A model generated the notes under the pieces. It worked only from the letters and a program-made list of their open reading frames with translations. It searched no databases and was not told the DNA's origin. From the sequence record KU935715.1: a stretch of 64,000 nt of DNA; one strand, written 5' to 3'. The stretch's first letter is position 1. Each line of letters starts with the position of its first letter. The stretch is from Acinetobacter phage vB_AbaM_ME3. Below are positions 2,177 to 42,142 of this stretch, one piece after another. Position numbers and translations under genes: made by a program.

Positions 2177-3622
2177 TTACTCTTTAACTAATGCATAACG
2201 ATCTACTAATAGCGTTTCTTTCATAATAGCTTCAGGTGAAAACTCATCTAAAGTATTAGAACAAACTGCTTTTAATAGAGAAGGAGAAAAGCTAGATAAT
2301 AAACAAGCACCTGATTCATCATATTTAACAGGAAAGTTATTATTAGAAGGAGTGTTAAGAACCCAAAAGATTAATTTAGGACATTTTAATCCTGCTTCTT
2401 TAAACTTAACTTGAGCATCAACATATGCTGAGCTTTCACGAGAATTAAAATTAAACTGAGTGTCACTGAAGAAAACTAAATATTCAGGTAATTGATCTGA
2501 AGAAATATTATTAGAAACTACTAGATCTAATAGTAGTTTAAAGACACCTTCAACATTTGTACTATAACCAACTTGACTTTGAGCAATAAGATCATAACGC
2601 TCTTTTAAAGTTTTACAATCTTTGAGATCAACAAAAGAAGGATGATCTGCAAATGTAGTTACAAGGTTTTTAAATGGACCTTCAATACGTTCACTGATGT
2701 AAGCACCTAAAGTAATTGCAATATGTTTATATGTTGCATTACCTACAGCAGGAGCTTCCATTGAACCACTTAAATCAACTACAGGAAGAATCGATAAACC
2801 TTCTTTAATTAAATTAGGAAAGCTATTCCACTGAGCTTCTACAACAGGATTAGGTTCGAAATAAGGAGAATAACGAGACCCTAATATTGAATAAACTTCA
2901 GAAATTTCATGAAGAAATAATGTAGACGAATTTAAAGTTGCAGTTCCCTCACTCACTTTATTAATAAAATCATTAAAACGATCTGAGTCTTTAGACAAGA
3001 ATGTATTTTTATAACGATTAAAAGCTTTAGAAGGAACTGTACTATAATCTATTTCAGCGATACGATGCTCACACAATAAACGTTCAGTAACTTTAGCTCG
3101 TAAAGGGACAATTAACTGTCTTAATTCTTTAGGAGTGACCTTAAGATAAGAACGTAACATAGATGCAACATTGCCTTTCAAAGGTAACCACTTTGCAACT
3201 AATATCTGAGTTTCAGGATTTTTCAAATGTTCAGCTAATAGTCGAATAATCTTTTTCTTAATACGAAGATCAACATCACATTCTACTAAATTAAATAAAT
3301 CAGGATAATACCCTAACTCTACAATTTTAGATAAAAGATTAGTTTTTAAAAATACATCAATATCTATATGAGCTAAATGAATCATACAGAGATTAAATGA
3401 ATTACGAATACCTTTACCTTGTCTAATATCACGAGAATTCAAAAGATTACGAATTGCTAAATCTTTGTCTTCTAGATAAGCTTTTCGAAAATCTAAAATA
3501 GCTTCTTGAGAATAGTTAGGATCACCTAATTTAACAAAGAAATCTAAATTATGAGAAGCAGTACTAGAATAAGCTACTGCCCCATTAGTGGTTTGTGTTT
3601 TTAAAGCTGTTGCTGCAAACAT
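2177..3622 (-). CDS. von Willebrand factor A (vWA) domain protein, possibly with TROVE/Ro60-like N-terminal region
   Basis: MIDAS-type motif VVDLSGSM followed by conserved T (GNATYKH...) in the C-terminal half. The long alpha-rich N-terminal region is reminiscent of phage DUF2828/TROVE-vWA proteins, which is inference. Confidence 0.6.
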   Translation of the reverse strand: MFAATALKTQTTNGAVAYSSTASHNLDFFVKLGDPNYSQEAILDFRKAYLEDKDLAIRNLLNSRDIRQGKGIRNSFNLCMIHLAHIDIDVFLKTNLLSKIVELGYYPDLFNLVECDVDLRIKKKIIRLLAEHLKNPETQILVAKWLPLKGNVASMLRSYLKVTPKELRQLIVPLRAKVTERLLCEHRIAEIDYSTVPSKAFNRYKNTFLSKDSDRFNDFINKVSEGTATLNSSTLFLHEISEVYSILGSRYSPYFEPNPVVEAQWNSFPNLIKEGLSILPVVDLSGSMEAPAVGNATYKHIAITLGAYISERIEGPFKNLVTTFADHPSFVDLKDCKTLKERYDLIAQSQVGYSTNVEGVFKLLLDLVVSNNISSDQLPEYLVFFSDTQFNFNSRESSAYVDAQVKFKEAGLKCPKLIFWVLNTPSNNNFPVKYDESGACLLSSFSPSLLKAVCSNTLDEFSPEAIMKETLLVDRYALVKE

Positions 3623-3637
3623 TATGTTATTACCTAA

Positions 3638-4078
3638 TTATCGAATACGTTTATGAAAAGATATAAAATCAGGATCATCTATAAAACGTTTAAACATTTT
3701 TAGATTATATTCTGAAAAAGGAGAAGAGGAAGGGTTGGTTAATTGTTCAGGAGTTACATACTCTACCTTAGCTCCTTCTTTATTCACAAAAGGAAGTTTT
3801 GGTAAGTCTTTAACAACACCATCATATACATAAGTTAATGTATCATACTCACCATCCCAATCTTGGAATAGAAACATTAATTTTGTAGGATCTAACTCAA
3901 TACCTACTTCTTCACGAACTTCACGAACAAGTCCTTGAATTAATGTTTCTTCTTCCTCTGCCTTACCACCTGGAAGTCCTAATAAATTATGATTGTCTTT
4001 ACGTGATACTGATAACACCTTAGAACCAGTTTCTGGATCAGGGTAGAGTAAGAGTATAGCTTGTTTTAAATCTTTCAT
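3638..4078 (-). CDS. NUDIX hydrolase
   Basis: Nudix box GGKAEEEETLIQGLVREVREEVG (GX5EX7REUXEEXGU) is clearly present. Confidence 0.8.
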   Translation of the reverse strand: MKDLKQAILLLYPDPETGSKVLSVSRKDNHNLLGLPGGKAEEEETLIQGLVREVREEVGIELDPTKLMFLFQDWDGEYDTLTYVYDGVVKDLPKLPFVNKEGAKVEYVTPEQLTNPSSSPFSEYNLKMFKRFIDDPDFISFHKRIR

Positions 4079-4096
4079 TACGAGCTTCCTATAAGC

Positions 4097-5197
4097 TTAG
4101 AGAGCATATGCTGATTGGTTTGTTAAAAAACTTTTATACATTGGTTGAATAAGGAATTTAAGTCCTTGATGAATAATTGTAATTTCACGTGTCATTGGAT
4201 TTTGACTAATTTCACTATTCATGTGAGTAATATATACATCAAATGCTTGATCACCTAATTCTTCATCAGTTGAGTATGGGTTCCATTCATTACGATGTTT
4301 ATTTAAAAACTCTAATAAACATGAAGAATTAGCTACAAAATCAGCAGGATCATATTCAGAATTAGTATTAAGATTAAACGCTCGAATATTAAATTCAATA
4401 GTGTCATTATTCAATTGAGTTTTAATATTAAGAATTTCAGTTAAACTTGCAATTGACTCTTCAGGATACTGATTCATTTCTTTAATTAATACAGATAACA
4501 TATCAATATTAAATTTAGAGAACTTTCCTACAAATTCCAATACTTCACTAGTACGTGATTGATCTTCTAAGTTATCTTTCATGTACTCTTTAAGTAGTTC
4601 AATATCTAATGATTTGAACTCAATATTAAAATAAACACGACCAGGACGATTGCTAAAGTACTCTAAATGGTGACCATATAAAGTTGTATTAGCAGTCATT
4701 AAGAATAAAGTATGTTGAGGCCATGTACCATCTAATAAGCTTAACATAGAATTACGAGGTTCAGCTTCCATGTATACTTTTTCAAATTCATCAATCACTA
4801 CAATTTTATCTTGAGTAATACTTTGAAGGAATTGATTAAATGTAGAACCAGCATAAGGTTGATCAACAATTAAGACAATTCCTTGATGAGATTCTACAAA
4901 GTTAATACAAATACGTTTAAGTAATAAGCTCTTACCACTTCCTTTTTCACCTACAAAGGCAGCAGATGTAGCTTTGTCTTGACGTTCAAAGTATGTATCT
5001 AAGATACGACCAGCCCAACGATCTGATTTTCCATATACTTTATGGTAAATAGTAAAAGGATTTGTAGGGCTTAAGAAGAATTGTTTAACTTGGTCATCCC
5101 ATTGAACAGAATAATAACCAGCTGGAATAACAGGTACAATAAACTTTGCTAGATTTTCAGCAACATAATAACCATTAGGTTTATTTAAATAAGACAT
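4097..5197 (-). CDS. P-loop NTPase (Walker A/B ATPase) of unknown family
   Basis: Walker A GEKGSGKS and a Walker B-like IVVIDEFE; 366 aa. Confidence 0.55.
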   Translation of the reverse strand: MSYLNKPNGYYVAENLAKFIVPVIPAGYYSVQWDDQVKQFFLSPTNPFTIYHKVYGKSDRWAGRILDTYFERQDKATSAAFVGEKGSGKSLLLKRICINFVESHQGIVLIVDQPYAGSTFNQFLQSITQDKIVVIDEFEKVYMEAEPRNSMLSLLDGTWPQHTLFLMTANTTLYGHHLEYFSNRPGRVYFNIEFKSLDIELLKEYMKDNLEDQSRTSEVLEFVGKFSKFNIDMLSVLIKEMNQYPEESIASLTEILNIKTQLNNDTIEFNIRAFNLNTNSEYDPADFVANSSCLLEFLNKHRNEWNPYSTDEELGDQAFDVYITHMNSEISQNPMTREITIIHQGLKFLIQPMYKSFLTNQSAYAL

Positions 5198-5697: not shown

Positions 5698-6071
5698 TAC
5701 ATTATCCTAGGATTAATAATTTGAAGATATACAGCATTTTTATTAGGACCATTACTAAACTTAAAGTAAGAGTCAGAATTGGGTAAGAGCATTATTAAAT
5801 CATTGTAAACTTGCTTAGTGAAAATAAAAGTAATACCTTCATTTTCAATTAAGATGTTTTCAAAGTTACTGGGATCTTTACTCCCAAAAGCTAGTGCAAA
5901 AAGATCAGAATAACCAATTTGAGGAATAAAAGTAACAACTTCTAATTCAGGAGCTTTCCTATAAACTGAGAAGAAATTTTTCCACATTCGAAGTGTATTC
6001 TGATGAATATTTCCAGGATGTATTCGAATCTCAGGTACATAAAATTTATTTAACTTTGGCATGTTAAGCAT
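5697..6071 (-). CDS. KFK-family paralog (member 1 of tandem array)
   Basis: N-terminus (L)NMPKLNKFYVPEIRI shares the M-x-K-L-x-K-F-K signature of the downstream array. The true start is probably the internal ATG (MPKLNKF). Confidence 0.5.
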   Translation of the reverse strand: MLNMPKLNKFYVPEIRIHPGNIHQNTLRMWKNFFSVYRKAPELEVVTFIPQIGYSDLFALAFGSKDPSNFENILIENEGITFIFTKQVYNDLIMLLPNSDSYFKFSNGPNKNAVYLQIINPRIM

Positions 6072-6448
6072 TAACTGTTAATTCAAATGTAATCACACTT
6101 GGTTCTGATAAAAATATTAAGCCTGTAGCATTTGAAGTTAATATAAAATATGAATCAGCTCTTGATAACTTATTATTTATATTCTCACGCATAGTGGCAC
6201 TGAATCCAAATACTAACCCATTGGACTCAATAAAGAGCATATCTTGAGATGTATAATGTTCTTTATCTCTAGGTAATACTCTTACTATGTATAATCCTTG
6301 TACGAATATGTTCGATATCATATACATAGAGAAAATCAACATTATCTCTAGAATTTAAAAAAGTTCTATACGAATCTGCTGTTTCCTGAATGATATGTCC
6401 ACCTACAATATTACATGGACTTACATTAAATTTTAAAAGGGGTTTCAT
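6064..6448 (-). pseudogene. KFK-family paralog with apparent +1 frame disruption
   Basis: ATG at 6448 overlaps the stop of the upstream gene (AGATGA). It opens a 59-codon ORF, MKPLLKFNVSPCNIVGG..., ending in TAG. The 92-aa track ORF 6064..6342 continues in the +1 frame, and the fused length (~128 aa) matches the family. Confidence 0.4.
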
Positions 6449-7818: not shown

Positions 7819-8142
7819 TTAAGTAATCACTTCATCTAATGTTTTATAAAGGATATTTGATTCTTCTTTTTTACAAAATAATCCTTCTCCAGGAATTCGA
7901 TAAATTACCTTTTGAAGATCATAGTCTTTCTCAACTAAAATAGTAAGATAACCGTCACTATATATATTCATATTATTAATAACAGATTGAGCACAATGAC
8001 GTTTATAATAAACATGAAGTCGTGATCTACGTGTAGTATCTAAAGTTAATACAATAGAATCATTAACTCCTGATAATAATTCATATAGTTCATATTCTAA
8101 TTTTAAACCTTGAAAAGACTTAAACTTTTGTAAACTATTCAT
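7819..8142 (-). CDS. KFK-family paralog
   Basis: MNSLQKFKSFQGLKL... Confidence 0.55.
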   Translation of the reverse strand: MNSLQKFKSFQGLKLEYELYELLSGVNDSIVLTLDTTRRSRLHVYYKRHCAQSVINNMNIYSDGYLTILVEKDYDLQKVIYRIPGEGLFCKKEESNILYKTLDEVIT

Positions 8143-8506
8143 ATACTTCTATAAACTCTTCTTCTCGTATATCTCTAATAATACATCCTCTACCTGGATA
8201 TTCATCATATTTACGAGACATAACTTTGCTATCATTTTGAAGTAATTTAACTATGTCACCTGACATATGTAAGGTACAATTATTTTTAAAAGGAATTTTT
8301 AAAGAATCTTCTTCACAGTAATTCCTGTTGGTTTGAGTATAAAAACTAATAGCTTCTTTAAACTCAGGAACATCTTCTCTAGACATGTATTGTATATAGA
8401 TATTTTTATAAGTTCTTGAATGTTCTAATACACTGTTATAGACATCTTTAGTAAATTTAATAGAAGGTGGTAATTTGAATTTAGATAGTTTCATATTGAT
8501 CCTCAA
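8135..8506 (-). CDS. KFK-family paralog
   Basis: ...MKLSKFKLPPSIKF... and the central motif MSGDIVKLL. Confidence 0.6.
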   Translation of the reverse strand: MRINMKLSKFKLPPSIKFTKDVYNSVLEHSRTYKNIYIQYMSREDVPEFKEAISFYTQTNRNYCEEDSLKIPFKNNCTLHMSGDIVKLLQNDSKVMSRKYDEYPGRGCIIRDIREEEFIEVYE

Positions 8507-8840
8507 GATTTATTTCAATTACTTCATCTAAGTCACTTAAGTCATCAATTGAACTAATTATATAATCACCTGTAACTCCTCTAGCCATACATGCATTAGA
8601 GTTCAATTTATCTATAATGCTTCCGCATATAACTAAAGTATTATTTTGAAAAAGTTTAATTATACCTTTTGTATCTAATTGCATTCGTTTCCGAGGTATG
8701 GAATACAAAGAAAATTCATCTCGATCAAACCAGCAAGCATACATAATATTATGAGCTTTAGAATAGTTTATAAAGGTATCATAGAGGTCTTTAGTTATTT
8801 TTATAGATTTTGTATCTATAAATTTTTGTAATTTATTCAT
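8481..8840 (-). CDS. KFK-family paralog
   Basis: MNKLQKFIDTKSIKI... and the central motif ICGSIIDKL. Confidence 0.55.
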   Translation of the reverse strand: MNKLQKFIDTKSIKITKDLYDTFINYSKAHNIMYACWFDRDEFSLYSIPRKRMQLDTKGIIKLFQNNTLVICGSIIDKLNSNACMARGVTGDYIISSIDDLSDLDEVIEINLEDQYETI

Positions 8841-9171
8841 AATATATTTCTATTAATTCATCTTGAGATACTAATTCTTTATCAATTATTTCATACACAT
8901 TTTTAGATATTCTAGATAAACATACAGACTCATTTAATTGTTGAGCAACTGTACCACATATAAATAATAAAAAGTTATTTTCAAATCTTAAACATATATC
9001 ATTTACAGCTTGATAATTTGGAAGAGCTTTACTATACAGCACAATAGTACTACTACCTTGCTGTTGTATAACTAGTACCTTCTGCATAGCAAAATTATGA
9101 GAGAGATCAAGTGCTACTCTATGTGTTATGAATACACTTTTACGAATTTTAAATTTACTCAATTGCATCAT
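8833..9171 (-). CDS. KFK-family paralog
   Basis: MMQLSKFKIRKSVFI... and the central motif ICGTVAQQL. Confidence 0.55.
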   Translation of the reverse strand: MMQLSKFKIRKSVFITHRVALDLSHNFAMQKVLVIQQQGSSTIVLYSKALPNYQAVNDICLRFENNFLLFICGTVAQQLNESVCLSRISKNVYEIIDKELVSQDELIEIYYE

Positions 9172-9475
9172 AACAGTCTATTTCTATAACTTCTTCAAAA
9201 GTACTATTAAGAAAAACATAAACCCCTGGTTCTTTTCTATATAAATATTTTCCTTCTTCTATATCTAAACTATTTAAATAGAAGCGGGTTTGATCTATAT
9301 AGAAAATTACATATCTATCTAAAGAAAATTTTTTTGGACGACGAGTTCCTAAATATAATCCTTCATCATTAGAATAAAAATAAAAATCTCTTGAATTAAA
9401 TTTAGTCAAAAATTGGTAAAAAGAATGTGTAATTAATAGGGTAGTTTTAATTTTAAAAGACTTAAGAAAAGCCAT
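9155..9475 (-). CDS. KFK-family paralog
   Basis: MAFLKSFKIKTTLLI... Confidence 0.55.
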   Translation of the reverse strand: MAFLKSFKIKTTLLITHSFYQFLTKFNSRDFYFYSNDEGLYLGTRRPKKFSLDRYVIFYIDQTRFYLNSLDIEEGKYLYRKEPGVYVFLNSTFEEVIEIDCYDAIE

Positions 9476-9785
9476 AAATTTCTATCTCCATAATTTCTTC
9501 GTCTACATTATGAAGAAATTGATAATCAGCAGCACCTAATCTATGTAAAATTTTTCCTTGAAGAATACTTTCAAAATGTTCGGGATTTAATAACATATTA
9601 GAAGTTCCAATTCTAAATCTAATATAATTTATTCTTGAAACAGGTCGAATCATTTGAAGTCGCATACCACTATCACGATTGTTAACAAAAGTTAAAGGAC
9701 TTAACTCTATATCATTTATAAATTTATATGTTGACTTCGATATACGTATTACAGAAATTGTTTTGAATTTATTAAGCTTCTTCAT
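9462..9785 (-). CDS. KFK-family paralog (start refined to internal ATG MKKLNKFK)
   Basis: The track ORF extends to 9872, but the family signature MKKLNKFKTISVIRI begins at codon 30, which avoids a long overlap with the next paralog. Confidence 0.5.
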   Translation of the reverse strand: MKKLNKFKTISVIRISKSTYKFINDIELSPLTFVNNRDSGMRLQMIRPVSRINYIRFRIGTSNMLLNPEHFESILQGKILHRLGAADYQFLHNVDEEIMEIEIYGFS

Positions 9786-10113
9786 CAATGATTTCAAAAC
9801 TCCTAAAAGGTATATCAGTTTTAATAAACTTAGATACAATTCCATCCTTAACCAAAGCAGTACCTTCTTCAATACTATTTAAATGCCTTCTTGTTATATA
9901 GCATTTAATATTATCAATATAAAAATGTACATAAGGTCCTAAATCATAATGCCTTGCTAGATACATAACCCAACGATCAGCATCCATATGATAATATGTA
10001 AGGACAATCTCAGTTTCTTCATATCCTTCAAGATGATGTTTTAGTTCAGTAATCAAACTATCTGTTATGTTAATAACTTTAGAAAAAGTTTTAAACTTAT
10101 TAAATTTTTTCAT
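9772..10113 (-). CDS. KFK-family paralog (last member of first array)
   Basis: MKKFNKFKTFSKVINI... Confidence 0.55.
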   Translation of the reverse strand: MKKFNKFKTFSKVINITDSLITELKHHLEGYEETEIVLTYYHMDADRWVMYLARHYDLGPYVHFYIDNIKCYITRRHLNSIEEGTALVKDGIVSKFIKTDIPFRSFEIIDEEA

Positions 10114-10675
10114 CTTCTATATCCTGATGATATTTTTCGATAATGTCATCTAAAGAAAATACTTTGTGTTCTACGTCAAGACCAACATCATATTGGAACT
10201 TCTTACGATCTTTATAAGTACCGTGACAATGACCAAATAAATTAATTGATCCTCGATGAGACTGATCCCAAGAACCTAATGGATAATGACTCATAGTAAT
10301 ACGAGTAGTTAAAGAATCTGAAATTTTAACATCTCTTAAACAGAAGTAATGATTTATATATTTATGAGGATTTAGTTTATAGACTTGTTGAAAAGCTTGC
10401 ATAATCATATTAGCAAATTTTTCATCATGATTACCTAAAGCGATATAAACCAAAACACCCTTATCTTTAAAATATGTAAAGAACTTAATAAACTCTTGCA
10501 ACTTAATCCTAAAATTACAAGAGATATCTCCTAATAAGTAGAGAATATCTCCTGATTTTAAATGATCAAATTTAGACATGATCCATTGATTATGCTCTTC
10601 TTCAGTACATGGACGATTACAATATTTAATGATATTTTTGTGCGACAGGTGCAAATCCGATGAGAAATGGATCAT
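10100..10675 (-). CDS. calcineurin-like metallophosphoesterase (Ser/Thr phosphatase-like)
   Basis: Motifs SDLHLSH, LLGDISCN and GNHDEKF match the phosphoesterase signature D-x-H...GD-x-x-D...GNH[DE]. Confidence 0.75.
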   Translation of the reverse strand: MIHFSSDLHLSHKNIIKYCNRPCTEEEHNQWIMSKFDHLKSGDILYLLGDISCNFRIKLQEFIKFFTYFKDKGVLVYIALGNHDEKFANMIMQAFQQVYKLNPHKYINHYFCLRDVKISDSLTTRITMSHYPLGSWDQSHRGSINLFGHCHGTYKDRKKFQYDVGLDVEHKVFSLDDIIEKYHQDIEDEKI

Positions 10676-11332: not shown

Positions 11333-11746
11333 TTATTTTTTATTAACTAATTGTGAAATTGTTTTAGCATCGTATTGAGATACATGGTAATTAGCTTTAA
11401 ACCAGTTCATAACAAATGCAGTTTTATTACCTTTATCTTCAGACCAATTTCCACACACTCTTTCAACAATTTCAATTGTTTTTTCAGGAGATAATGGTTG
11501 AGGTAATAAACTATTTAAAATTTCTAATTCTTCACGTGCAACTTCATTTAAAGGAGAGACACTTAATACTTGTAAAGCTGAATCACGAAACTTTTTTAAA
11601 GTATCTAAAGTAATAGTATTTCTATCTGCTTTTACTTTCTTTTCGGCTTGTTGAACTTCACCTAAAATAGTTGTAAACAGATTTGTATGAACTTTATTCT
11701 TATTTTTACGAGCTTCTAATGATTTTTCAGTAATTGTTTGAAACAT
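11333..11746 (-). CDS. hypothetical protein (137 aa)
   Basis: ORF track. Confidence 0.5.
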   Translation of the reverse strand: MFQTITEKSLEARKNKNKVHTNLFTTILGEVQQAEKKVKADRNTITLDTLKKFRDSALQVLSVSPLNEVAREELEILNSLLPQPLSPEKTIEIVERVCGNWSEDKGNKTAFVMNWFKANYHVSQYDAKTISQLVNKK

Positions 11747-11757
11747 TTTATATCCAA

Positions 11758-11792
11758 TAAAAAAGCCTCTACTATAATTTAGTAGAGGCTTT
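11758..11792 (-). terminator. intrinsic terminator (bidirectional hairpin)
   Basis: Perfect 14-bp inverted repeat AAAAGCCTCTACTA / TAGTAGAGGCTTTT with a 5-nt loop. It is followed on the minus-strand RNA by UUUUUUAUU and lies just downstream of the gene ending at 11797. Confidence 0.7.
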
Positions 11793-11796
11793 TATT

Positions 11797-12420
11797 TTAA
11801 GTTAAAGGAAGTATAACTGATCTTACAACATCATCTGATCCACGTACAGAGATCTTTAAATTGAAATCATCTATAACACTTAAAGATATATTAGAAGGTA
11901 ATCTAGCAGAATCTACTTTAGTACTCAAACCACTTGTTATTGTGGAATTTAAAGTAGATTCAAGAGTAGATACCTTAGAATCAACATATGGCTTAATAGA
12001 ATGAGGATCTTCTGAAGTTGTATGTTCTTCAATCTTTCTATCTAGTTCCATATCAACATAGTCGACATTATTATTAGAGATTTTGTTTAACATCTCATTT
12101 TGAATATCAACCATATTAACAGTAATAGAGTGGGGATCTAACATAGTAATAGGTAATTGACTAAGAGAGATCATCCCATTAACTAAATCTGCTTTAGTGT
12201 TATTAAGATTTTGAATAGCAGGATTGAATGTATCTCTCACTGCTTGTTCTCTCAAATCTATATACTGTTTTTGACTAATAGATAATGGTTTATCTATATC
12301 ACTAGTATTATCTACTTTATCGAGATCTAAAATTTGAGGAACATCAAGTAGTACCCAATTCTTTAATTTCTGAGTAGTTAGATGATATTTACCACGTCCG
12401 AGCAATAGGTATTTGTTCAA
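11797..12420 (-). CDS. hypothetical protein; probable true N-terminus in the +1-frame short ORF 12389..12487
   Basis: The track ORF begins with TTG directly after an in-frame TAG and has no Shine-Dalgarno sequence. 66 nt upstream, an ATG with AAGGAAG Shine-Dalgarno opens the 32-codon ORF MADAYLGQTISQVPEFPHELVGIEQIPIARTW, which runs into this gene out of frame. Deleting one A in an AAA run fuses the two. Confidence 0.5.
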   Translation of the reverse strand: MNKYLLLGRGKYHLTTQKLKNWVLLDVPQILDLDKVDNTSDIDKPLSISQKQYIDLREQAVRDTFNPAIQNLNNTKADLVNGMISLSQLPITMLDPHSITVNMVDIQNEMLNKISNNNVDYVDMELDRKIEEHTTSEDPHSIKPYVDSKVSTLESTLNSTITSGLSTKVDSARLPSNISLSVIDDFNLKISVRGSDDVVRSVILPLT

Positions 12421-12499
12421 TACCTACTAACTCATGAGGAAATTCTGGTACTTGACTTATTGTTTGCCCAAGATAAGCATCAGCCATTATAATTCTTCC

Positions 12500-13945
12500 T
12501 TATGTTCTTTGTTGAAAACCAAAACCAGTATTTACTAATTCTGTGCTTTCATTTTCACGTCTACCTGCTAATAAAGCAAATAGATTAGCTAAAGTAATAC
12601 GATCTGGAAGACTTTCTTCTAAGTCTAAACGATCACAACGATTTAGTACTTTAACTGCTTGTTCTTTATGCAATGCATCTACATGAATAGCTTTATAGCA
12701 ACGGCCTTCACGTAATAGAGCTTCATCAACATCTGCTAAATTATTTAAGTTAGAAGTAAAGATAACTTTCTTTTCTTTCTTAGCTGTTAATCCATCAGTG
12801 ATGTTAAGAAGTTTTTTCATCACTTCATTACCATCTTTCTGACGACTATTAATATAAGTATCAGCATCTTCAATAATTAAGAATCGTTCATCACTATCAT
12901 AGAAATGAGAGAATAACGAATCCATATTAGCAATATCTTTATTGTATGTGATTAAACAAGATTCATTAGCATAATGTAAAATTTGCTTTAATAAACTTGT
13001 TTTACCAGTACCTGGAGCTCCATACAATAATAACACAGCTGAATCAGATTCTAAATAGCCATTAATAAAATCTTGAAGATTAATATCATTTAAGAAAGGA
13101 TAAGCTTCTTCAATAAAAGTCTTATTACGAGGAATTGGAATAGTTTTAATATTCAAATCACCTGACTGTGTAATACGATCAACCCATTGAACTTCAACTG
13201 TCTTAGGTTTTAATTCTAATAAAGGGTGAAGTTCTTCAGCTAATGTAGTAGGCATGATTGCATTATTAATAAAGTAATCAGCAGGAACCTTATGAGTATG
13301 TTCAATAGATATAAAACCACCATCCATTAAAATCTCATAATGCTTTTGAAGCTTTTCACCATAATGAGTAAATACTGTTAAAGCTTTTGATTTAGCAAAT
13401 TCTAAAATAGCTTCAAATGATGCTTTTGTAATTTCAGTATATGTATAAGTAGATAAAGGAATTCCTTTATCTAAAGAATTTTGTTGAATATTAACTAGGT
13501 ACTGCATACCGAATGAAGCAGTAACAATACTAGGACTTAAATTATTTTGAGAAGTCATTGGAGGGCTCATAGGAATATTATATACAGGTACTTTAGTATA
13601 AGCTGGATTTACATCTGGTGAATGATAATAGTTAGGACCACTTACTGCGTAGACATGCTTGCCTGTATAAGATACTTGAAGATCATATGAATCTCTGGGG
13701 TTAGCATTGTACTGTGGACCAACCCCTGTAAGAGTATTATAAATAGACTTATTAAAACTTGAAGCAGTAATTTGTCTTAAAAAAGTTCTATAATACATAG
13801 ATACGTAACTAATACGATCATATGAATTTAACTCTCCAAACTCATTATTAACAGTTGGAGAAACACCTTCAACAATTTTAAAAGCGTTTCTAAATATAGA
13901 CATTATTTGAAATGGTCTATGTCTTCGAAGAGTTACTCTTGCCAT
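12500..13945 (-). CDS. AAA ATPase (classic AAA clade, single C-terminal AAA module)
   Basis: Walker A GAPGTGKT and Walker B FLIIEDAD. The second region of homology FTSNLNNLADVDEALLREGRCY matches T-N-x-x-x-x-LD-x-ALLR-x-GR. The roughly 250-aa N-terminal domain has unknown function. Confidence 0.8.
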   Translation of the reverse strand: MARVTLRRHRPFQIMSIFRNAFKIVEGVSPTVNNEFGELNSYDRISYVSMYYRTFLRQITASSFNKSIYNTLTGVGPQYNANPRDSYDLQVSYTGKHVYAVSGPNYYHSPDVNPAYTKVPVYNIPMSPPMTSQNNLSPSIVTASFGMQYLVNIQQNSLDKGIPLSTYTYTEITKASFEAILEFAKSKALTVFTHYGEKLQKHYEILMDGGFISIEHTHKVPADYFINNAIMPTTLAEELHPLLELKPKTVEVQWVDRITQSGDLNIKTIPIPRNKTFIEEAYPFLNDINLQDFINGYLESDSAVLLLYGAPGTGKTSLLKQILHYANESCLITYNKDIANMDSLFSHFYDSDERFLIIEDADTYINSRQKDGNEVMKKLLNITDGLTAKKEKKVIFTSNLNNLADVDEALLREGRCYKAIHVDALHKEQAVKVLNRCDRLDLEESLPDRITLANLFALLAGRRENESTELVNTGFGFQQRT

Positions 13946-13951
13946 ATTATA

Positions 13952-14140
13952 CTATTCACTTTTAAATTGCTTAATCATGTATGTGTTATGTTCATTCAAG
14001 AAATCATTCATAATTTGTAGTGTTTCTACATCTTGAGTTAACTTTTGATTTTCTTTAGTTAACTCGTCACATTTTTGATTAAGAACATAAATCGCTGCTA
14101 ATAATAAAAGAATAACAGAGATAACAAGACTAACCAGCAT
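13952..14140 (-). CDS. small single-pass membrane protein with coiled-coil tail
   Basis: TM segment LVSLVISVILLLLAAIYVL is followed by a heptad-like tail QKLTQDVETLQIMNDFL. Confidence 0.45.
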   Translation of the reverse strand: MLVSLVISVILLLLAAIYVLNQKCDELTKENQKLTQDVETLQIMNDFLNEHNTYMIKQFKSE

Positions 14141-14141
14141 A

Positions 14142-14831
14142 TTAATTCTCTTCTACAGAAGGCGCTACTGTAGCGCCTTTAAGAGCAGCTAAACGTTCTT
14201 GAGCTGATTTTTGAGTAGTATTGTATTTCTTAACTACTTCTTGACCAACTGGTTTAGTCTTCTCTTTTACACGTTTAATACCCTTATAACGAGAAGACAT
14301 TTCATCAGCATCGCGACGAACTTGTTCAATTTGGGCACGTAATCCATTAGGAATACTATCAGAGTGAAGTTCAATTAATGCTTTAGCAGCATCATAACGT
14401 ACTTCAGCTAATGTAAGCGTTTGCTGTGCTTGAACAATGTCTTCATCAATTGTTTTAAGCTCTTCTTCTAGATCTTTAGAATGTTCTACAAAAAGATCTA
14501 AAGTAGATTGTAATACTTCTAGTTCTCTTTCAGCAGCATCTAATTCACTTGCAATTATTTCTACATCTGAAGTATTACCTTCAGCATCAGCTTGTAATAA
14601 AGCTGAATTTAAAGCTTCAATTTGTTTTTGAGCTTCTACTACTTTACCTTCATATAAAGCCGCTTTACCTTCTGTAGTTTCAAAAGTTTTAACTACAGCA
14701 CAACGAGCTTCATTATATTGCTTTAAAATACGATGACTACGATTTTTAATTGAATCTAATTCATCTAATGTACGATCTAATTTAGATCCAAAAATTAAGA
14801 AGAATTTTTTGAGTAACTTAAAAAAGTTCAT
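14142..14831 (-). CDS. PspA/IM30 (Vipp1, ESCRT-III-like) family coiled-coil protein - tentative
   Basis: 229 aa and almost entirely coiled coil. It has an N-terminal amphipathic segment MNFFKLLKKFFLIFGSKL, E/Q/A/L-rich heptads, and a length and profile typical of PspA. Assignment is by pattern only. Confidence 0.45.
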   Translation of the reverse strand: MNFFKLLKKFFLIFGSKLDRTLDELDSIKNRSHRILKQYNEARCAVVKTFETTEGKAALYEGKVVEAQKQIEALNSALLQADAEGNTSDVEIIASELDAAERELEVLQSTLDLFVEHSKDLEEELKTIDEDIVQAQQTLTLAEVRYDAAKALIELHSDSIPNGLRAQIEQVRRDADEMSSRYKGIKRVKEKTKPVGQEVVKKYNTTQKSAQERLAALKGATVAPSVEEN

Positions 14832-14833
14832 GA

Positions 14834-15244
14834 TTATTCCTTTGTATATCTACGAATTAGTTGTTCACGTCTTGAACCAGTAGTTGACGTATTTAAGAGA
14901 GAAGCTAAAGTTTCAGGATTAAATATCACAGCTGTCTTTTCTCCTCCCATTATCTTATTACGATTAATAGTATCGAATAGAACATGAACTGCTTTAGGAC
15001 AAGTTTTTGGATAATTACTCTTTTGTTTTTCAAGCTTATTATACAACTTAGTAATAGTTGGAAATTCATAAGGATTGAAACCTAACAAACGAGTAACTGT
15101 ATCTGTATATGATTCAATTGTCTCTTCTACTGGTGCAGGAATTCTTTTTAATTTTTTATAACGTTTAAATAAAAATACAATTACAAAAAATAGACATTGT
15201 GCTAGAAGAAGTCCTAGACAAAATGCAGCAATTTTCTCACCCAT
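14834..15244 (-). CDS. N-terminally membrane-anchored protein (136 aa)
   Basis: Hydrophobic segment AAFCLGLLLAQCLFFVIVFLF followed by basic KRYKKLKR. Confidence 0.5.
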   Translation of the reverse strand: MGEKIAAFCLGLLLAQCLFFVIVFLFKRYKKLKRIPAPVEETIESYTDTVTRLLGFNPYEFPTITKLYNKLEKQKSNYPKTCPKAVHVLFDTINRNKIMGGEKTAVIFNPETLASLLNTSTTGSRREQLIRRYTKE

Positions 15245-15776
15245 GTAAATTTACCTTTTTATATTTCTTAATTGAAAAAGAGACCCCAGAAGAAGAGACT
15301 TTATCTTCTTGTTCTACTAACTGGAATTCAGAAGTATCTAAGTTATGATTATAGAACTTATTACCATTTTCAATTTCAATACCTACTACTGTAGCTATTA
15401 CTTCATCTGGCGGGTAAGACTCATATACTTTTTCACCACCTACTATAAGAATCTCTTCATTAGGATTAGCTTTAATATAATGATCCAATATTGGTTTAGT
15501 CCAATAAGAAATATTATTAGAATCTAATCCATAATCATCAATTAATTGTTGGGCTTTAATTGGATTTTGAGTAATAACTACAATATTACGCCCAGGAAGA
15601 ACTTCATGACTTTTTGCATAACCCACTACACTACGAAAAGTATTACTTCCCATATAAATAGTTTTTCCTAAAGTTAATTCTTTAAAGAGTTTTAAGTCTT
15701 CAGGTAAATGCCAAGGAAGACCATTGTCAATTCCAATTACATCATTTAAAGATTTAGCTACAATATGTTTAATCAT
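15237..15776 (-). CDS. frd: dihydrofolate reductase
   Basis: Collinear with bacterial FolA: IGxxNxLPWHLPEDLKxFKxxT, the GRNIVVITQN block, and the GG motif LIVGGEKVYE. Confidence 0.85.
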   Translation of the reverse strand: MIKHIVAKSLNDVIGIDNGLPWHLPEDLKLFKELTLGKTIYMGSNTFRSVVGYAKSHEVLPGRNIVVITQNPIKAQQLIDDYGLDSNNISYWTKPILDHYIKANPNEEILIVGGEKVYESYPPDEVIATVVGIEIENGNKFYNHNLDTSEFQLVEQEDKVSSSGVSFSIKKYKKVNLHG

Positions 15777-15778
15777 GG

Positions 15779-16117
15779 TTAATCCTCTAGAAGATCTCTA
15801 AAAATTTGTTCTCTTGTTCGTCCTGTCGTTAAATTAGGAACACGTCCATATTCAGAAAAATCAGAAGGTATTACCCTTGAATTCCTAAGTCTTGTACGAC
15901 TTTCTTCTCGGACATAATACTCATTAAATAGACGAGCATCAGTAGGAGGTAGACAACTAACAGAGCCTATTTCAGTCATAGTTGCCAGTAGTTCTTGAAT
16001 TTCTTTTGCCCATAAAGGATCATCTCTAACAATTTTCTTAAATTTAAGAAATGTTCCTTTTTTCTTCGATGGAGGATAGAAAAAAGGAAACCCTATAGTT
16101 GTAATATCATCCATCAT
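15779..16117 (-). CDS. hypothetical protein (112 aa)
   Basis: ORF track. Confidence 0.5.
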   Translation of the reverse strand: MMDDITTIGFPFFYPPSKKKGTFLKFKKIVRDDPLWAKEIQELLATMTEIGSVSCLPPTDARLFNEYYVREESRTRLRNSRVIPSDFSEYGRVPNLTTGRTREQIFRDLLED

Positions 16118-16517
16118 TTAGATAAGTCTCCAAGCAAGGATTAATACCTTCAGTAGTACCTGTAATTAACGTAGGTTGTCTTATAGGATAAGATGCTGAA
16201 GTTAATGTAAACATTGGAGGACTATAAGCTGTATTTAATTCAGCTCTTTGTGGTCTATACCTATCAGATAACATATATCCATAAAGTTGATCAAGTAAAA
16301 GATCATTTATTAATTTGGAAGTTTCATTCCAAGAACCTTCATACACACCATCTAGCCAACATTTAGAATCTTCTTCTATTAAAGGATTAGTATGAACAGT
16401 AGTCTTAAATTTATTAAGTTTTTGACCTTTATCTTTTTGTTCTTCAGGCTTGGTATATTTATAATATTTAATTTGAATAGGAGTTTCTAGTCTCCAATTT
16501 GAATAATCTCTTCTCAT
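16107..16517 (-). CDS. hypothetical protein (136 aa; contains internal KLNKFK signature)
   Basis: ORF track. The KFK-family signature QKLNKFKTTVHTN sits at codon 33, so the start may be misplaced. Confidence 0.45.
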   Translation of the reverse strand: MRRDYSNWRLETPIQIKYYKYTKPEEQKDKGQKLNKFKTTVHTNPLIEEDSKCWLDGVYEGSWNETSKLINDLLLDQLYGYMLSDRYRPQRAELNTAYSPPMFTLTSASYPIRQPTLITGTTEGINPCLETYLNDG

Positions 16518-16525
16518 GAATTCCT

Positions 16526-16738
16526 TTAATATGTAATTGTTTTATGTTTTATATTACCACATTTTTTACATTGTTTAATAAAGGAAACACCATAAGGAAT
16601 AGATTCATCTTTTTCGACTAAACTAATTTCTTTAACAACAACGTATTCATGTTTACAACTTAAAAATCTTGAGTACACTATAAACATACATAACGAGAAA
16701 AAGAAGCCAATAAATAATCCAATTATTTCATTAATCAT
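16526..16738 (-). CDS. small membrane protein with C-terminal CxxC...CxxC zinc-ribbon
   Basis: TM segment IIGLFIGFFFSLCMFIVY, then CKHEY...CKKCGN. Confidence 0.45.
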   Translation of the reverse strand: MINEIIGLFIGFFFSLCMFIVYSRFLSCKHEYVVVKEISLVEKDESIPYGVSFIKQCKKCGNIKHKTITY

Positions 16739-16747
16739 ATTAACTCC

Positions 16748-17239
16748 TTAATAAGAGTTAAACACATCTACACTACCATCTGGCTTAATGTGGTATGTCT
16801 CTTTTTTATTTTTTATTGAGTAATTTAATGTATACCATGTCCCACTTAATTTAGGAGATGGGTCTTCGTTTTCTAAAGTAATAGCAATCATAATAGAAGA
16901 TTCATTAACAATATCTCTATTACGAGCAAAGTAAGTTTTATCTTCTCTTACTTGATCACTTTTAAAATCACCTACCAATTTCTTACTGACTGGTGGATGA
17001 GCAACAACAGTAAAGTCATAAAGATCTTTTACTAGTTTTGCAGCTTGAGTATCAACTCCAATACAATCTCCTTGATGAAAGGTATCAAGCATTGGATATC
17101 GTTCTAGTAGTTTAGCTACAACAGAGAGGAAAGCCTTCTGTTGTAGCTTATTCATACCTTGACGAGTACCTGTGATACCTAAATCAGTAATCTTCACCTT
17201 GGATACCATAAGTAACTCCATTGATATTTGAAACACCAT
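16748..17239 (-). CDS. hypothetical protein (163 aa), possibly Rossmann-like
   Basis: ORF track. Weak G-x-T-G-T-R-Q-G and HQGDCIGVD motifs. Confidence 0.45.
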   Translation of the reverse strand: MVFQISMELLMVSKVKITDLGITGTRQGMNKLQQKAFLSVVAKLLERYPMLDTFHQGDCIGVDTQAAKLVKDLYDFTVVAHPPVSKKLVGDFKSDQVREDKTYFARNRDIVNESSIMIAITLENEDPSPKLSGTWYTLNYSIKNKKETYHIKPDGSVDVFNSY

Positions 17240-17901: not shown

Positions 17902-18495
17902 TTAACGACGAGAGGAACGACTACTACTTCGAGTACTATATGACTTAGTTTTTGATAAGGTTGTATAAGACTTTTTAGTAGTAATATTAATAGGTTTCCT
18001 ACTAACTGTTTGAGGAGCTTTTTTAAGACTCACAGTCGAGGGAATAGAGCTAATAGTGGAAGGTTTATTAGCGGGCAAAGAAGTTTTAGATGGACTATCA
18101 GTAGAAGTAGTCTTTACTGGTTGACTATTGTAATTGTTAACTACAACAGTCTTTTTAACCACAGTTTGTTTAGGTTGTCTAACATAATTCTTACGATCAT
18201 AATCATTAGAATTATTAGCAATCATATGACCAGCTACAGCACCTGCAATACCAGAAAGTAAAACATCACTACCAGTATAACCACTCTGAGAAGCTACAGC
18301 TTGAGCTTGCTGAGGGTTTTGTTGGTATTGGGTAGTAAGAGCAACCCATTCATCTAACGTGCCTGTATATCCATCTGATTGAGCTTGCTTGTACGTAGTA
18401 ACAATTTTACTACTTTCATAACTCTCTGGAGCTTTTGTACAACCAACAAAAGACATAGATATAGCAATTACAGAACAAAGAAAAAACTTTTTCAT
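17902..18495 (-). CDS. lipoprotein with glycine-zipper segment and Ser/Thr-rich C-terminus
   Basis: Signal peptide plus lipobox MKKFFLCSVIAISMSFVGC. Glycine zipper GIAGAVAGHM. C-terminal third rich in S/T/K/R. Confidence 0.6.
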   Translation of the reverse strand: MKKFFLCSVIAISMSFVGCTKAPESYESSKIVTTYKQAQSDGYTGTLDEWVALTTQYQQNPQQAQAVASQSGYTGSDVLLSGIAGAVAGHMIANNSNDYDRKNYVRQPKQTVVKKTVVVNNYNSQPVKTTSTDSPSKTSLPANKPSTISSIPSTVSLKKAPQTVSRKPINITTKKSYTTLSKTKSYSTRSSSRSSRR

Positions 18496-23628: not shown

Positions 23629-24708
23629 CTATTTCCTTAATTCGTTAGGAACAATTCTTTTAAATCGCCAATGGTTACTTCCATCAGCAATATGATTTGC
23701 TCTAACTAATTTACAAAGTTTATTTCGAAATTCAGAATAATGAAAAGATTTAGTTGTACGAACTACTATACCTTCATGTCCTGCTTTAACAACTTGTTTA
23801 AATAAATCATTAATTACAACTTCATCGTATGGTCCTCGATATATTTCTTGAACCATTGTCATACCTAACAATTCAAACCATTCTTTTGTATCATCCCAAG
23901 ATAGACATATGTCCTTATCCCACACTTGGAATCCGTACAAATATGAATCTAAATCTTGATAATGAATTGCATGTTTAGCATATAAATTCTCTGCATAGTA
24001 ACGCATACCTTCAGGAATATTATAAGCAATATGTTGATAATGGAAGTTCTTTGCCCAAGCACGAGATTCATGATCTAAAGAATCGATAGAACGAGCATGA
24101 CAATAATCGGGGTATCCCGCAAAGTTCTCTCCATCCATTTTAATAGTTATTACAATTTCATCAGATACTAAATGATGTGATATATTGTAATTAGTTTTAT
24201 CATCTTCAGTTTTATGAGCACTTAAAGGATGATGATACGAACGAGGATACTTGTAATAATGAGTAAATTCATCTAGTACTCCGCCATCAGATAAAACTTT
24301 CTGAACTGATTCATCATAGAATAATGGACCAGGCATTCTCTTACCATTAAGAAGAATGATGTTACCCCATTTATCATATTGATGATCAGGGTACATATAT
24401 TCAGGAAGAACAACTTTTTGAGCTCCTACCTTCTCTCTTACTTCATCACAACTAATAACTGTTTGTTCGCACTTTAAATGACAAGAATCACAGACGGTAC
24501 CAGCGTTTTCGATATGATAGCCAAAACAATCCGAAAATAAACGTCTTTCGACAATGTGATGCACAGATAATTTCTCTGTACTACCACAGAAGATACACTT
24601 GTGGTTGTCTCTTATTAAACCTTGTTCTCTAAATTCATCTCTAGATAAAGGTTTCCCATCTGTTCCATGACAACCACAAATTGTTGAGTGAGGTTTACTA
24701 GATTTCAT
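23629..24708 (-). CDS. Rnl2-like ATP-dependent RNA ligase with N-terminal Cys/His (HNH-like) zinc-finger domain
   Basis: Nucleotidyltransferase motif I IKMDGEN (KxDGxN, as in T4 Rnl2 KIHGTN). Motif IV/V HEGIVVRTTK...FRNKLCK. The N-terminal 80 aa is rich in C/H pairs (CGCHG...CIFCG...HHIVERR...CDSCH). Confidence 0.55.
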   Translation of the reverse strand: MKSSKPHSTICGCHGTDGKPLSRDEFREQGLIRDNHKCIFCGSTEKLSVHHIVERRLFSDCFGYHIENAGTVCDSCHLKCEQTVISCDEVREKVGAQKVVLPEYMYPDHQYDKWGNIILLNGKRMPGPLFYDESVQKVLSDGGVLDEFTHYYKYPRSYHHPLSAHKTEDDKTNYNISHHLVSDEIVITIKMDGENFAGYPDYCHARSIDSLDHESRAWAKNFHYQHIAYNIPEGMRYYAENLYAKHAIHYQDLDSYLYGFQVWDKDICLSWDDTKEWFELLGMTMVQEIYRGPYDEVVINDLFKQVVKAGHEGIVVRTTKSFHYSEFRNKLCKLVRANHIADGSNHWRFKRIVPNELRK

Positions 24709-38241: not shown

Positions 38242-39309
38242 TTATCTCAAAATAGCTATAGCTTGATAAGGTGAAATATTTGAATCAATCTCTATTTCAA
38301 CTTCTAATGGATCTGCAAGAGATTTCATAAAATGATAAACAGAAGCTGAAGAACCTGAACAAATAATTAATCGAGGTTTTCGACGAAGTAATGCACGAGT
38401 GCATTCACTAATCGTTGGCTTGATCTTTAGTTCATCTTGAACATTATAAGTTTCAGTAACATGATCAATAACAAAATTTGTACGCCGATCACATTGCTGC
38501 TTCAGATAAGAAGTAACCTTAGCAGGAATACTATCAAATTTATCTAATACTTCAGTAATTTGATCAAGAAAGTAGTTAGTTACATCATACTCTTGAAGAT
38601 TCTGATATATTGCACATGTGTGATATTTACCTTTATCTGAAATTACAGAACGAGATAATAACCCACTAATTACACTATTAAGAATTCCAAAAGGAATAAT
38701 TTCATCAGTGTCTGTAGCATAGATATCAGAGATATGATTAATGTCATTTAAGACTACTAAACGAAAAGGTTTCATACCTAAAGGTAAACCTAACTGTCTC
38801 CAACTTTCACGCAACTGATTGAAAATTGTTCCTTTACCAGTCCAACCATCTACAAAGAATAGATCACATTCTGCACTATGTTTTTCGATAATATGATTAA
38901 ATGCTAATTCATCTAATCCAAAATCTCGAATAATAGATAGTGCATAATGGTGTACTTTAATCTTATAACGTAGTTCTAGAGAACGTTTAATTAATACACC
39001 TAAAGGTAGTCCAGCTCGAATTAAACTAGCTAATACAATATTGTTTTTATCTTTTGATTGTTCAAAAATTGCATCAGCTAATCCATTAATCCATTTACCT
39101 AAACTAATACGATATGAGTAAGAACTCATTAAACGATTAAATTCAGATAATTGTTCACGAGATGGAGCATCTTCAGATAACAGAAAAGATGAATAATGTT
39201 CACCAGAAGCAATACGAGCTTCTTTTTCATCTTTAGTGATAAATGTATGATCTGTAGAAATATTTAATAAAAGGGTAACATCTTCTGGTTTAAATGTACT
39301 AAAAGTCAT
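38242..39309 (-). CDS. phosphoribosyltransferase (type I PRTase-like) paralog A
   Basis: PRPP-loop-like LFFVDGWTGKGT. Its N-terminal region AGLPLGVLIKRSL is paralogous to the second PRTase (AETGLGLGYLVHNQL). Confidence 0.5.
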   Translation of the reverse strand: MTFSTFKPEDVTLLLNISTDHTFITKDEKEARIASGEHYSSFLLSEDAPSREQLSEFNRLMSSYSYRISLGKWINGLADAIFEQSKDKNNIVLASLIRAGLPLGVLIKRSLELRYKIKVHHYALSIIRDFGLDELAFNHIIEKHSAECDLFFVDGWTGKGTIFNQLRESWRQLGLPLGMKPFRLVVLNDINHISDIYATDTDEIIPFGILNSVISGLLSRSVISDKGKYHTCAIYQNLQEYDVTNYFLDQITEVLDKFDSIPAKVTSYLKQQCDRRTNFVIDHVTETYNVQDELKIKPTISECTRALLRRKPRLIICSGSSASVYHFMKSLADPLEVEIEIDSNISPYQAIAILR

Positions 39310-40025
39310 GATAATAACTCTTTAATAATTTGAACATTATCTTTAGTAGGAGTCATTAAGAAATCACATTCTAACATAAAGAACAGATCAGATTTTGAAT
39401 CACCTATACCAATAGTAACTACACCTGGATGTAGCTCTAACATCTTTTTCTTAATGAAACGAACAGCATCTGTTTTAGGTTTTAATGTTTTAGGGAATAT
39501 AGAAAAACCAGTACCATTAATATACAACTCAAGCCCTTTGTGTTGCTTTAGAATAGAATTTAATTTTAATAAATCCGTAGACTTGTTGTTAATGTTCCCT
39601 TCAATATAAAACCCATAAGTTTTATGAGTAATTAATTTTGAATGAACATTATACAAATGAAGGTACTTAATACTTTCTCTTAATTCATTCTGACTACTAG
39701 ATACTTTACCAATAAGGGTGTCAGTAAATTCTGGAATCAATTTATTATCATAGGTATAAATAAATACACCATAATTACAAACTTTAAATGAGTTAAAGTT
39801 AAAAGTTGATTCAACACGTTTTAAACTTTCAATAGATCTAGCAGTTACAGGAATAACACCACTAGAGCCTGAGTTAAATTCATTAAATAAAGAAATTTGT
39901 TTAGGGGTAGTGCAAATATTACTACCAGAATCTGATGTATAAACAACGTGACGTGGTTCATCAGACTCTAGATGGCGTTCAGTTTGAATGAAAGTTAAAT
40001 CGAGATCACAAAAGCTTAAAAACAT
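39306..40025 (-). CDS. HAD-superfamily phosphatase
   Basis: Motif I FCDLDLTF (DxDxT) at the N-terminus. Motif IV GIGDSKSDL near the C-terminus. Confidence 0.6.
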   Translation of the reverse strand: MFLSFCDLDLTFIQTERHLESDEPRHVVYTSDSGSNICTTPKQISLFNEFNSGSSGVIPVTARSIESLKRVESTFNFNSFKVCNYGVFIYTYDNKLIPEFTDTLIGKVSSSQNELRESIKYLHLYNVHSKLITHKTYGFYIEGNINNKSTDLLKLNSILKQHKGLELYINGTGFSIFPKTLKPKTDAVRFIKKKMLELHPGVVTIGIGDSKSDLFFMLECDFLMTPTKDNVQIIKELLS

Positions 40026-41133: not shown

Positions 41134-41136
41134 GTC

Positions 41137-41436: not shown

Positions 41437-41447
41437 TTTAAATCCTT

Positions 41448-41482
41448 CTGAAAAAGAAAAGGACAGAATATTTCATCTGTCC
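41448..41482 (-). terminator. intrinsic terminator after TerD gene
   Basis: 7-bp stem GGACAGA / TCTGTCC with an 8-nt loop. The minus-strand RNA hairpin is followed by UUUUCUUUUUC. Confidence 0.55.
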
Positions 41483-41520
41483 ATCTCTTTGTTATTTATT
41501 CAATTTAGAAATTTTAAATC

Positions 41521-42132: not shown

Positions 42133-42142
42133 AATAAAATCC

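Follow-up and report, generated by a model that had tools for sequence, protein, structure and literature searches.

PspA owes its name to the fact that phage infection induces it, and it is seen as a polymer that repairs cellular membranes and descends from the ancestor of ESCRT-III. Members of the PspA/Vipp1 group share a layout in which an N-terminal amphipathic helix runs into a long hairpin, followed by shorter helices, and in the psp operon the pspA gene lies beside pspB and pspC. Here, we describe a group of minus-strand genes in a 64,000-nucleotide stretch of DNA from Acinetobacter phage vB_AbaM_ME3 (sequence record KU935715.1; the whole stretch is referred to below as the window). Three of the genes (13952..14140, 14142..14831 and 14834..15244) encode a divergent PspA/IM30 homologue and, on either side of it, two small proteins with a predicted single membrane pass. 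A fourth gene (12500..13945) encodes an AAA ATPase. The best explanation of the locus, and one that we consider probable, is a divergent phage-borne PspA cassette that would protect the membrane, with the AAA ATPase as a separate chaperone. A comparative survey of the PspA family (Ravi et al. 2024, PMC11237479) makes no mention of viruses, and a 2025 review (PMC7619361) brings up phage solely as a PspA-triggering stress and states that a Vps4-like ATPase appears to be absent from bacteria.

The central protein, of 229 amino acids (aa), is encoded at 14142..14831 on the minus strand and matched PHROG 26980 over its full length (7e-93), a family labelled 'unknown function'. The family is small, with 10 clusters found among 5.8 billion proteins and ~13 clusters when defined at 50% identity. 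When the 11 closest members were made into a profile and 1.84 billion representatives were searched with it, only 13 proteins were recovered; 12 of these were 219-249 aa long, and the other was a 122-aa fragment. The family profile found the protein P0022 at an E-value of 5.9e-5 (1.84 billion proteins), with residues 12-221 colinear to 10-220. P0022 is a bona fide PspA, matching the Pfam PspA_IM30 family with 98 bits over positions 1-218 of 220. An intermediate protein, P0017, matched the family profile at 1e-13 and the Pfam PspA family with 30 bits (E 5e-7), the latter colinear from 3-152 to 2-150.

Profile-profile comparison in hhalign, using a family profile built without P0022, gave 96.5% against P0022 and 97.7% against the five-member P0022 clade (E 1.7e-12, 212 columns, residues 4-221). 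As coiled coils yield spurious matches, reversed and shuffled controls were run. The reversed alignments gave 1.4-2.3%, and none of 20 heptad-block shuffles exceeded 3.3%. The result was 97.5% when the bridging P0017 was left out, 96.0% with the close family only, and 94.2% (E 1.1e-7) with the window sequence alone. In the reverse direction, a hidden Markov model (HMM) of the true-PspA clade was searched against the six-frame open reading frames (ORFs) of the window and the related loci; the window protein was the best match (3.3e-9) and there was no match outside the family. A first-pass annotation of the window had assigned the protein to the PspA/IM30 family, and this assignment is borne out by the comparison at 97.7% with controls at or below 3.3%. 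The similarity is significant, full-length and colinear, and the profiles support a real but divergent homologue of PspA/IM30, within the ESCRT-III superfamily.

The predicted structure of the protein is almost wholly helical, with a long hairpin followed by three shorter C-terminal helices. The AlphaFold2 (AF2) model had a pLDDT of 74.9 and helices at residues 3-83, 87-154, 162-191, 195-202 and 210-221. The N-terminal amphipathic helix of the first-pass annotation was recovered at residues 2-19 (hydrophobic moment, muH, ~0.5). The likeness to PspA, IM30, Vipp1 and LiaH (PF04012) takes in a size of ~220-230 aa and the predicted amphipathic helix; in the model, a hairpin with its tip near residue 84 may correspond to alpha1 and alpha2/3, and shorter helices after it are candidates for alpha4 and alpha5. 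It also takes in the full-length profile homology to bona fide PF04012 proteins at 97.7%, and the position of the gene beside genes for small single-pass membrane proteins, as pspA lies beside pspB and pspC. Unlike these known proteins, the window protein is encoded by a large lytic-type phage, it has diverged too far for direct detection by Pfam or NCBIfam, the sequences of its partners show no relation to PspB, PspC or LiaI, and no PspF-type regulator was present among the nearby genes examined.

The gene upstream of the PspA-like gene (14834..15244, minus strand) encodes a 136-aa protein with one predicted N-terminal transmembrane (TM) segment at residues 8-26 (hydropathy, KD19, 2.77). Orthologues were present at the same position in six of the related loci (L001, L002 and L005-L008), and their alignment showed an invariant LGFNPY motif and a C-terminal R..L..KY motif. 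Library scans of Pfam, PHROG and NCBIfam assigned the protein to no family, and we regard it as a candidate membrane anchor or partner. The gene downstream (13952..14140, minus strand) encodes a 62-aa protein with a predicted TM segment at residues 2-20 (KD19 3.03), followed by a short coiled-coil helix. Proteins of similar build, with a TM segment and a coiled-coil or low-complexity region (54-149 aa), occupied that position in L001, L002, L005, L007 and L008; no small TM gene was called downstream of the PspA-like gene in L006. Position and architecture of this small protein are kept and its sequence is poorly conserved.

The order of DHFR (dihydrofolate reductase), a ~130-aa TM protein and the PspA-like protein was kept in L001, L002 and L005-L009, with DHFR preceding the TM gene in all of the relatives whose locus extends that far upstream. 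A small TM protein followed the PspA-like gene in most relatives, down to 43% identity (the identities of the placed relatives to the window PspA-like protein were 81, 81, 56, 54, 52 and 43%). The two flanking single-TM proteins of the first-pass annotation are therefore real, and their positions are kept in nearly all relatives. Its suggestion that they could be PspB- and PspC-like partners held in part. Both fit the PspB/C architecture as predicted, being small, with a single N-terminal TM segment and a conserved position beside the PspA-like gene; sequence homology was not found, with neither PspB (PF06667) nor PspC (PF04024) among the matches listed for 13 flanking proteins from six loci (E<=1), nor did an informative Pfam family of another kind match them. 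The flanking proteins are analogues of PspB/C in architecture and position, and not members of those families. Together, these data support a phage-borne PspA cassette of three genes, two of which encode single-pass membrane proteins.

The 481-aa protein encoded at 12500..13945 on the minus strand matched the Pfam AAA family (PF00004) at residues 305-423 with an E-value of 1.5e-13 (51.8 bits, cut-off 21.2). The matched region contains the second region of homology motif FTSNLNNLADVDEALLREGR, and the protein carries GAPGTGKT (Walker A), IIEDAD (Walker B) and TSN...ALLREGR (second region of homology). The sensor-1 asparagine N399 and the arginine fingers R412 and R415 are invariant in 35 homologues. 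The first-pass annotation was thus correct in calling this a classic-clade AAA protein with a second region of homology. The protein also matched PHROG 14322 (8e-145), which is labelled 'unknown function'. It has no TM segment (maximum KD19 0.83). In the AF2 model, residues 1-139 had a pLDDT below 50 and were predicted as beta or coil; confident structure comprised an alpha/beta domain at ~140-280 and the AAA domain at ~290-460. The first ~135-139 residues evolve very fast.

Foldseek searches with the model returned only Bcs1 (best 4e-13) or Bacillus subtilis YjoB (4e-11) among the top 15 matches, over 370-390 columns covering both domains, although the TM-scores were low (0.34-0.49). Next came p97 and the proteasomal Rpt subunits at ~1e-9. 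The best sequence matches in the PDB were Cdc48, AFG2, NSF and Bcs1, and there was no Vps4 among the 60 matches listed; the NCBIfam CdvC model reached an E-value of only 0.11. Pfam BCS1_N was not among the best 25 of 31 matches. The Walker B motif of the window protein reads FLIIEDAD, and the ED form is kept in 35/35 homologues. ED in place of DE at this site is a stated peculiarity of Bcs1 and YjoB (PMC9565160). The three-helix bundle of an MIT domain was absent from the model, and neither MIT nor Vps4 appeared in the top 50 Foldseek matches in the PDB. The protein is, as judged from its sequence and model, a classic-clade ATPase of the Bcs1/YjoB type and predicted to be soluble. The first-pass annotation had taken it for a Vps4-like enzyme and had considered that its N-domain might be an MIT domain. 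Neither idea held: the N-terminal part is a low-confidence region followed by the alpha/beta domain, and the enzyme is not Vps4-like because it lacks an MIT domain, has Bcs1/YjoB as its best folds and carries the ED Walker B motif.

Like Bcs1 and YjoB, the window ATPase combines an alpha/beta domain with a single AAA domain, the ED Walker B motif and a classic second region of homology. It resembles YjoB, a SigW-regulated chaperone, in being soluble on prediction, and differs from Bcs1, the mitochondrial Rieske translocase, in having no TM anchor. It further differs from both in being phage-encoded and in its additional fast-evolving N-terminal region of ~139 residues, for which the structure is of low confidence. 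When compared with the archaeal and eukaryotic ESCRT-III and Vps4 systems (CdvB/CdvC), the window has in common the placement of an ESCRT-III superfamily gene beside a classic-clade AAA gene. It departs from them in that its ATPase has no MIT domain and belongs to the Bcs1/YjoB group rather than to Vps4, katanin and spastin, and in that the adjacency is not conserved.

The AAA gene adjoins the cassette in the window, L006 and L007 only, a clade of at least 80% identity. In L002 it comes nine genes (4 kb) further downstream, and on a contig of 233 kb its distance from the PspA-like gene is 9.7 kb and ~17 genes, with a NADAR gene after it. No AAA gene was present within the available locus sequence of L005, L008 and L009. 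A 491-aa gene downstream of the PspA-like gene in L001 was considered as the AAA gene and rejected, the real one being 9.7 kb from the PspA-like gene. The AAA family is ~20-fold broader than the PspA-like family (277 matches vs ~13) and is widespread on jumbo-phage contigs. Part of the N-terminal domain is common to about 65 AAA clusters, whose contigs reach 377 kb, and three loci of distant AAA homologues had no PspA-like ORF within 10 kb. As part of the best explanation, the position of the AAA gene beside the cassette is probably a lineage-specific rearrangement and not a conserved functional pairing.

In the ~55% identity clade, a NADAR gene directly follows the AAA gene in L002 (12585..14500) and L016 (4001..5940); L005 has a NADAR gene at 5710..6210 without an AAA gene. 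On a contig of 272 kb (L010, 10001..13977), a distant AAA homologue (P0059) is followed directly by DHFR and then by NAPRTase, and no PspA cassette intervenes. It seems that the genes for the AAA protein, DHFR and NAD salvage move together as part of a single variable accessory region.

The first-pass annotation had proposed that the PspA-like polymer and the adjacent ATPase form an ESCRT-III/disassemblase module, in which the ATPase remodels or recycles the polymer. This reading draws on the tight packing of the window genes, 1-6 nt apart in one apparent operon, on the same adjacency in L006 and L007, and on the ~55% clade, in which both genes lie on the same contigs and the same strand. Furthermore, AAA+ ATPases accompany some of the PspA and Snf7 genes of bacteria (Ravi et al. 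2024, PMC11237479), and the fast-evolving N-terminal 139 residues of the ATPase could be a lineage-specific recognition region. However, the ATPase has no MIT domain and no Vps4 in its top 50 Foldseek matches, and it falls in the Bcs1/YjoB group with the ED Walker B motif. Known members of this group hold folded clients in an internal chamber, and the threading of filament tails is not described for them (PMC9565160). The adjacency is lost outside the clade of at least 80% identity, where the genes lie 4 kb or 9.7 kb apart; the far broader AAA family occurs without a PspA-like gene; and a phage locus with a true PspA (L015, described below) has no AAA gene within 8 kb. An ESCRT-III and Vps4-like module is therefore not supported, the class of the ATPase and the synteny both being contrary to it, and a remodelling role for the adjacent ATPase is unlikely. 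In this tightly packed phage genome, adjacency failed as evidence for an ESCRT-III/Vps4-like pair. A bolder version holds that large T4-like and jumbo phages own PspA cassettes with new anchors, in at least two clades, and that the lineage of the window has coupled its cassette to a polymer-remodelling ATPase of the Bcs1/YjoB type. We regard this as a long shot; if true, the coupling would represent a non-Vps4 route to ATP-driven ESCRT-III dynamics in a bacterial system.

A membrane-protective cassette, with the ATPase acting apart from it, could work as follows. The amphipathic helix of the PspA-like protein, the two anchors, or both would recruit the protein to the inner membrane of the host, on its cytoplasmic side. 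At the membrane, it would polymerise and stabilise the bilayer, and the polymer would sustain the proton-motive force for the duration of a long infection. The leakage that it would counter may come from DNA injection, from phage membrane proteins and from host defences that target the membrane. The ATPase would act separately, most likely as a soluble chambered chaperone on folded clients. The PspA-PspBC and LiaH-LiaI systems are the basis of the analogy. The data establish the homology, the predicted architecture, the synteny and the class of the ATPase; recruitment to the membrane, assembly into a polymer, protection and the time of expression are what we infer.

A number of results weigh against this explanation. 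The 229-aa protein gave no match to PspA_IM30 (PF04012) in Pfam even at E<=1, where it matched just sub-threshold generic coiled-coil families, and the NCBIfam PspA and LiaH models missed it, with SMC-type noise instead. A phmmer search of PDB sequences yielded nothing beyond generic coiled-coil matches, and the family profile, searched against the same set, returned tropomyosin-type noise only. P0022 and its relatives, a single small clade, served as the bona fide PspA reference, and the comparison with a single sequence of Salmonella YjfJ, a PspA paralogue, was weak (55%). In Foldseek, Vipp1 ranked third and CdvB2 seventh at E ~0.02, among generic coiled coils. Fold searches do not discriminate here, and the PspA assignment rests on sequence profiles. 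The tight packing of the AAA gene against the cassette (a 6-nt gap), found in three contigs, would allow for a functional link particular to this lineage. Finally, the membrane-protective role is proposed purely by analogy.

The cassette could alternatively control lysis or its timing, with the TM proteins as holin, antiholin or spanin-like factors and the coiled-coil protein modulating them instead of protecting the membrane in general. Lysis cassettes typically include single-pass TM proteins with coiled-coil tails, and the 62-aa protein had weak matches to Rz-like spanin PHROGs (2e-5 and 3e-4), as the 136-aa protein had a faint one to a holin family (E 0.16). These matches are weak and driven by TM and coiled-coil composition, and the 62 aa of the downstream protein are not enough for an i-spanin, which has to span the periplasm. 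Among the genes from 9000 to 19000 there was neither an endolysin nor a recognisable holin, the cassette is set among genes of nucleotide and redox metabolism, and the specific PspA homology would be left unexplained. We consider a lysis function quite unlikely.

Host PspA is reported to be a target of conjugation and, during infection, a regulator of a CBASS cyclase (bioRxiv 10.1101/2023.09.29.560134; PMC11153139), and the phage protein could accordingly imitate host PspA as a factor in anti-defence or host takeover. It is highly diverged from cellular PspA with the overall architecture kept; the conservation of two membrane partners, however, is easier to reconcile with a structural role at the membrane than with a soluble decoy, and mimicry appears very unlikely. 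It is extremely improbable that the protein is a generic coiled coil or scaffold whose PspA similarity is an artefact of composition: its own sub-threshold Pfam matches and the tropomyosin and SMC-type proteins returned by the PDB sequence searches would fit such an artefact, but the score fell from 97.7% to at most 3.3% in the reversed and heptad-shuffled controls, the match is colinear, full-length and begins at the N-terminus, the reverse HMM search of the ORFs of the window and loci matched family members only, and P0017 connects both sides.

A divergent phage-borne PspA cassette thus remains the probable explanation, and it is not the only PspA found on phage-like DNA. A contig of 185 kb with phage-like content (L015, 1..236 and 8001..8669) carries a gene that matches Pfam PspA_IM30 and belongs to the clade of P0022 and P0031. 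The contig also encodes NADAR, an RNA ligase, endonuclease VII and homing endonucleases. No AAA gene was called within 8 kb of the PspA gene, and a Band_7 (SPFH) gene lies 8 kb upstream of it; Band_7 is a known partner domain of bacterial PspA (PMC11237479). The P0022/P0031 group is a second, independent clade of phage PspA.

A tblastn search of 50,697 isolate phage records found no relative of the window PspA-like protein or of P0022, and pattern scans of IMG/VR, JGI metagenomes and GTDB genomes found no relatives of the PspA-like protein. Megablast of the 6-kb region gave no match. ORF54 of Ralstonia phage RsoM2USA, listed as similar to 'phage shock protein A' (PMC8504454), was considered as a precedent and rejected, having no Pfam PspA match and an hhalign result of 0.3% against the family. 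Provisionally, no earlier report of a phage-borne PspA cassette was found in the literature searched, subscription literature lying outside the search.

The cassette is part of a run of five closely spaced minus-strand genes, transcribed in the order DHFR, 136-aa, 229-aa, 62-aa and 481-aa ORF. DHFR (15237..15776, minus strand; Pfam DHFR_1, 1.5e-29) overlaps the 136-aa ORF by 8 nt, and the gaps among the other four are 1-6 nt. The four ORFs from the 136-aa protein to the ATPase had all been reported by the first-pass annotation, and their positions were confirmed, all on the minus strand; it had placed the PspA-like gene downstream of the AAA gene, whereas by the direction of transcription it lies upstream. 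The neighbours of the cassette are genes of nucleotide and redox metabolism (DHFR, thioredoxin and YqeY). Between a 207-aa gene downstream of the AAA gene and YqeY, a stem-loop at 11761..11793 was found, a perfect 14-bp palindrome (inverted repeat AAAAGCCTCTACTA…TAGTAGAGGCTTTT) with A and T runs on either side. It is likely a bidirectional terminator that ends the transcription unit after the 207-aa gene. It was the sole terminator-like site in 11500..17000 where chance gives a mean of 1.4, and the assignment is weak because one site is no more than chance expects. Promoter-like sites were not above chance (31 vs 28 expected).

The window has a GC content of ~30%, and all of its ORFs of at least 120 aa are on one strand. 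It encodes PHROG families together with an RNA ligase, a Hen1-like protein, NAD synthase, StiP and PRTase_2, and relatives of the PspA-like protein are on contigs of up to 233 kb. Given the PHROG families, the accessory genes of large phages and the size of these contigs, the phage origin is well founded.

A Ter-type stress cluster is present at 38242..44288 (minus strand), ~23 kb from the PspA-like gene. It comprises a StiP and PELOTA protein (38242..39309; Pfam 6e-68), PRTase_2 (40006..41133; 2.5e-44) and a membrane protein (42474..43586; phrog_30252) that is possibly TerC-like. In the ~55% relatives, TerD, PRTase_2 and StiP/PELOTA lie ~2 kb upstream of DHFR and the PspA cassette. The cluster is upstream of DHFR in L001, L002, L008 and L009, with TerC also called in L002. 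Its location near the cassette may reflect a link between two membrane or stress systems.

Three further regions of the window were noted. Four tandem ORFs of 106-136 aa (8833..10113, minus strand) are apparently paralogous, with an N-terminal motif resembling K-F-K-T/I, and sit downstream of a Metallophos phosphoesterase (10100..10675); at the matching site, L006 and L007 have longer runs of ORFs of ~110-119 aa. A 197-aa ORF (17902..18495, minus strand) has a lipoprotein-type signal (…SMSFVGC) and a C-terminal half rich in Ser, Thr and Lys, and is a candidate phage lipoprotein, perhaps with a role in superinfection exclusion or a spanin-like role. A second ORF of 481 aa (2177..3622, minus strand) matched PHROG 850, labelled 'RNA-binding protein', and its counterpart in the syntenic L006 has a Hen1_N Pfam match. 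Near it are a NUDIX-like ORF of 146 aa and a second P-loop ATPase (4097..5197; phrog_2376). Together with the RNA ligase at 23629..24708, the ORFs in 2177..5197 suggest a set of RNA-repair genes.

The PspA and Bcs1/YjoB assignments extend the annotation of PHROG 26980 and PHROG 14322, and would give a description to two families that are both labelled 'unknown function'. For mechanistic work, the cassette would provide a PspA that is minimal and highly diverged, along with two new candidate partners. A phage with its own PspA and anchors would show that the energisation of the host inner membrane is a viral priority, in the manner of auxiliary metabolic genes.

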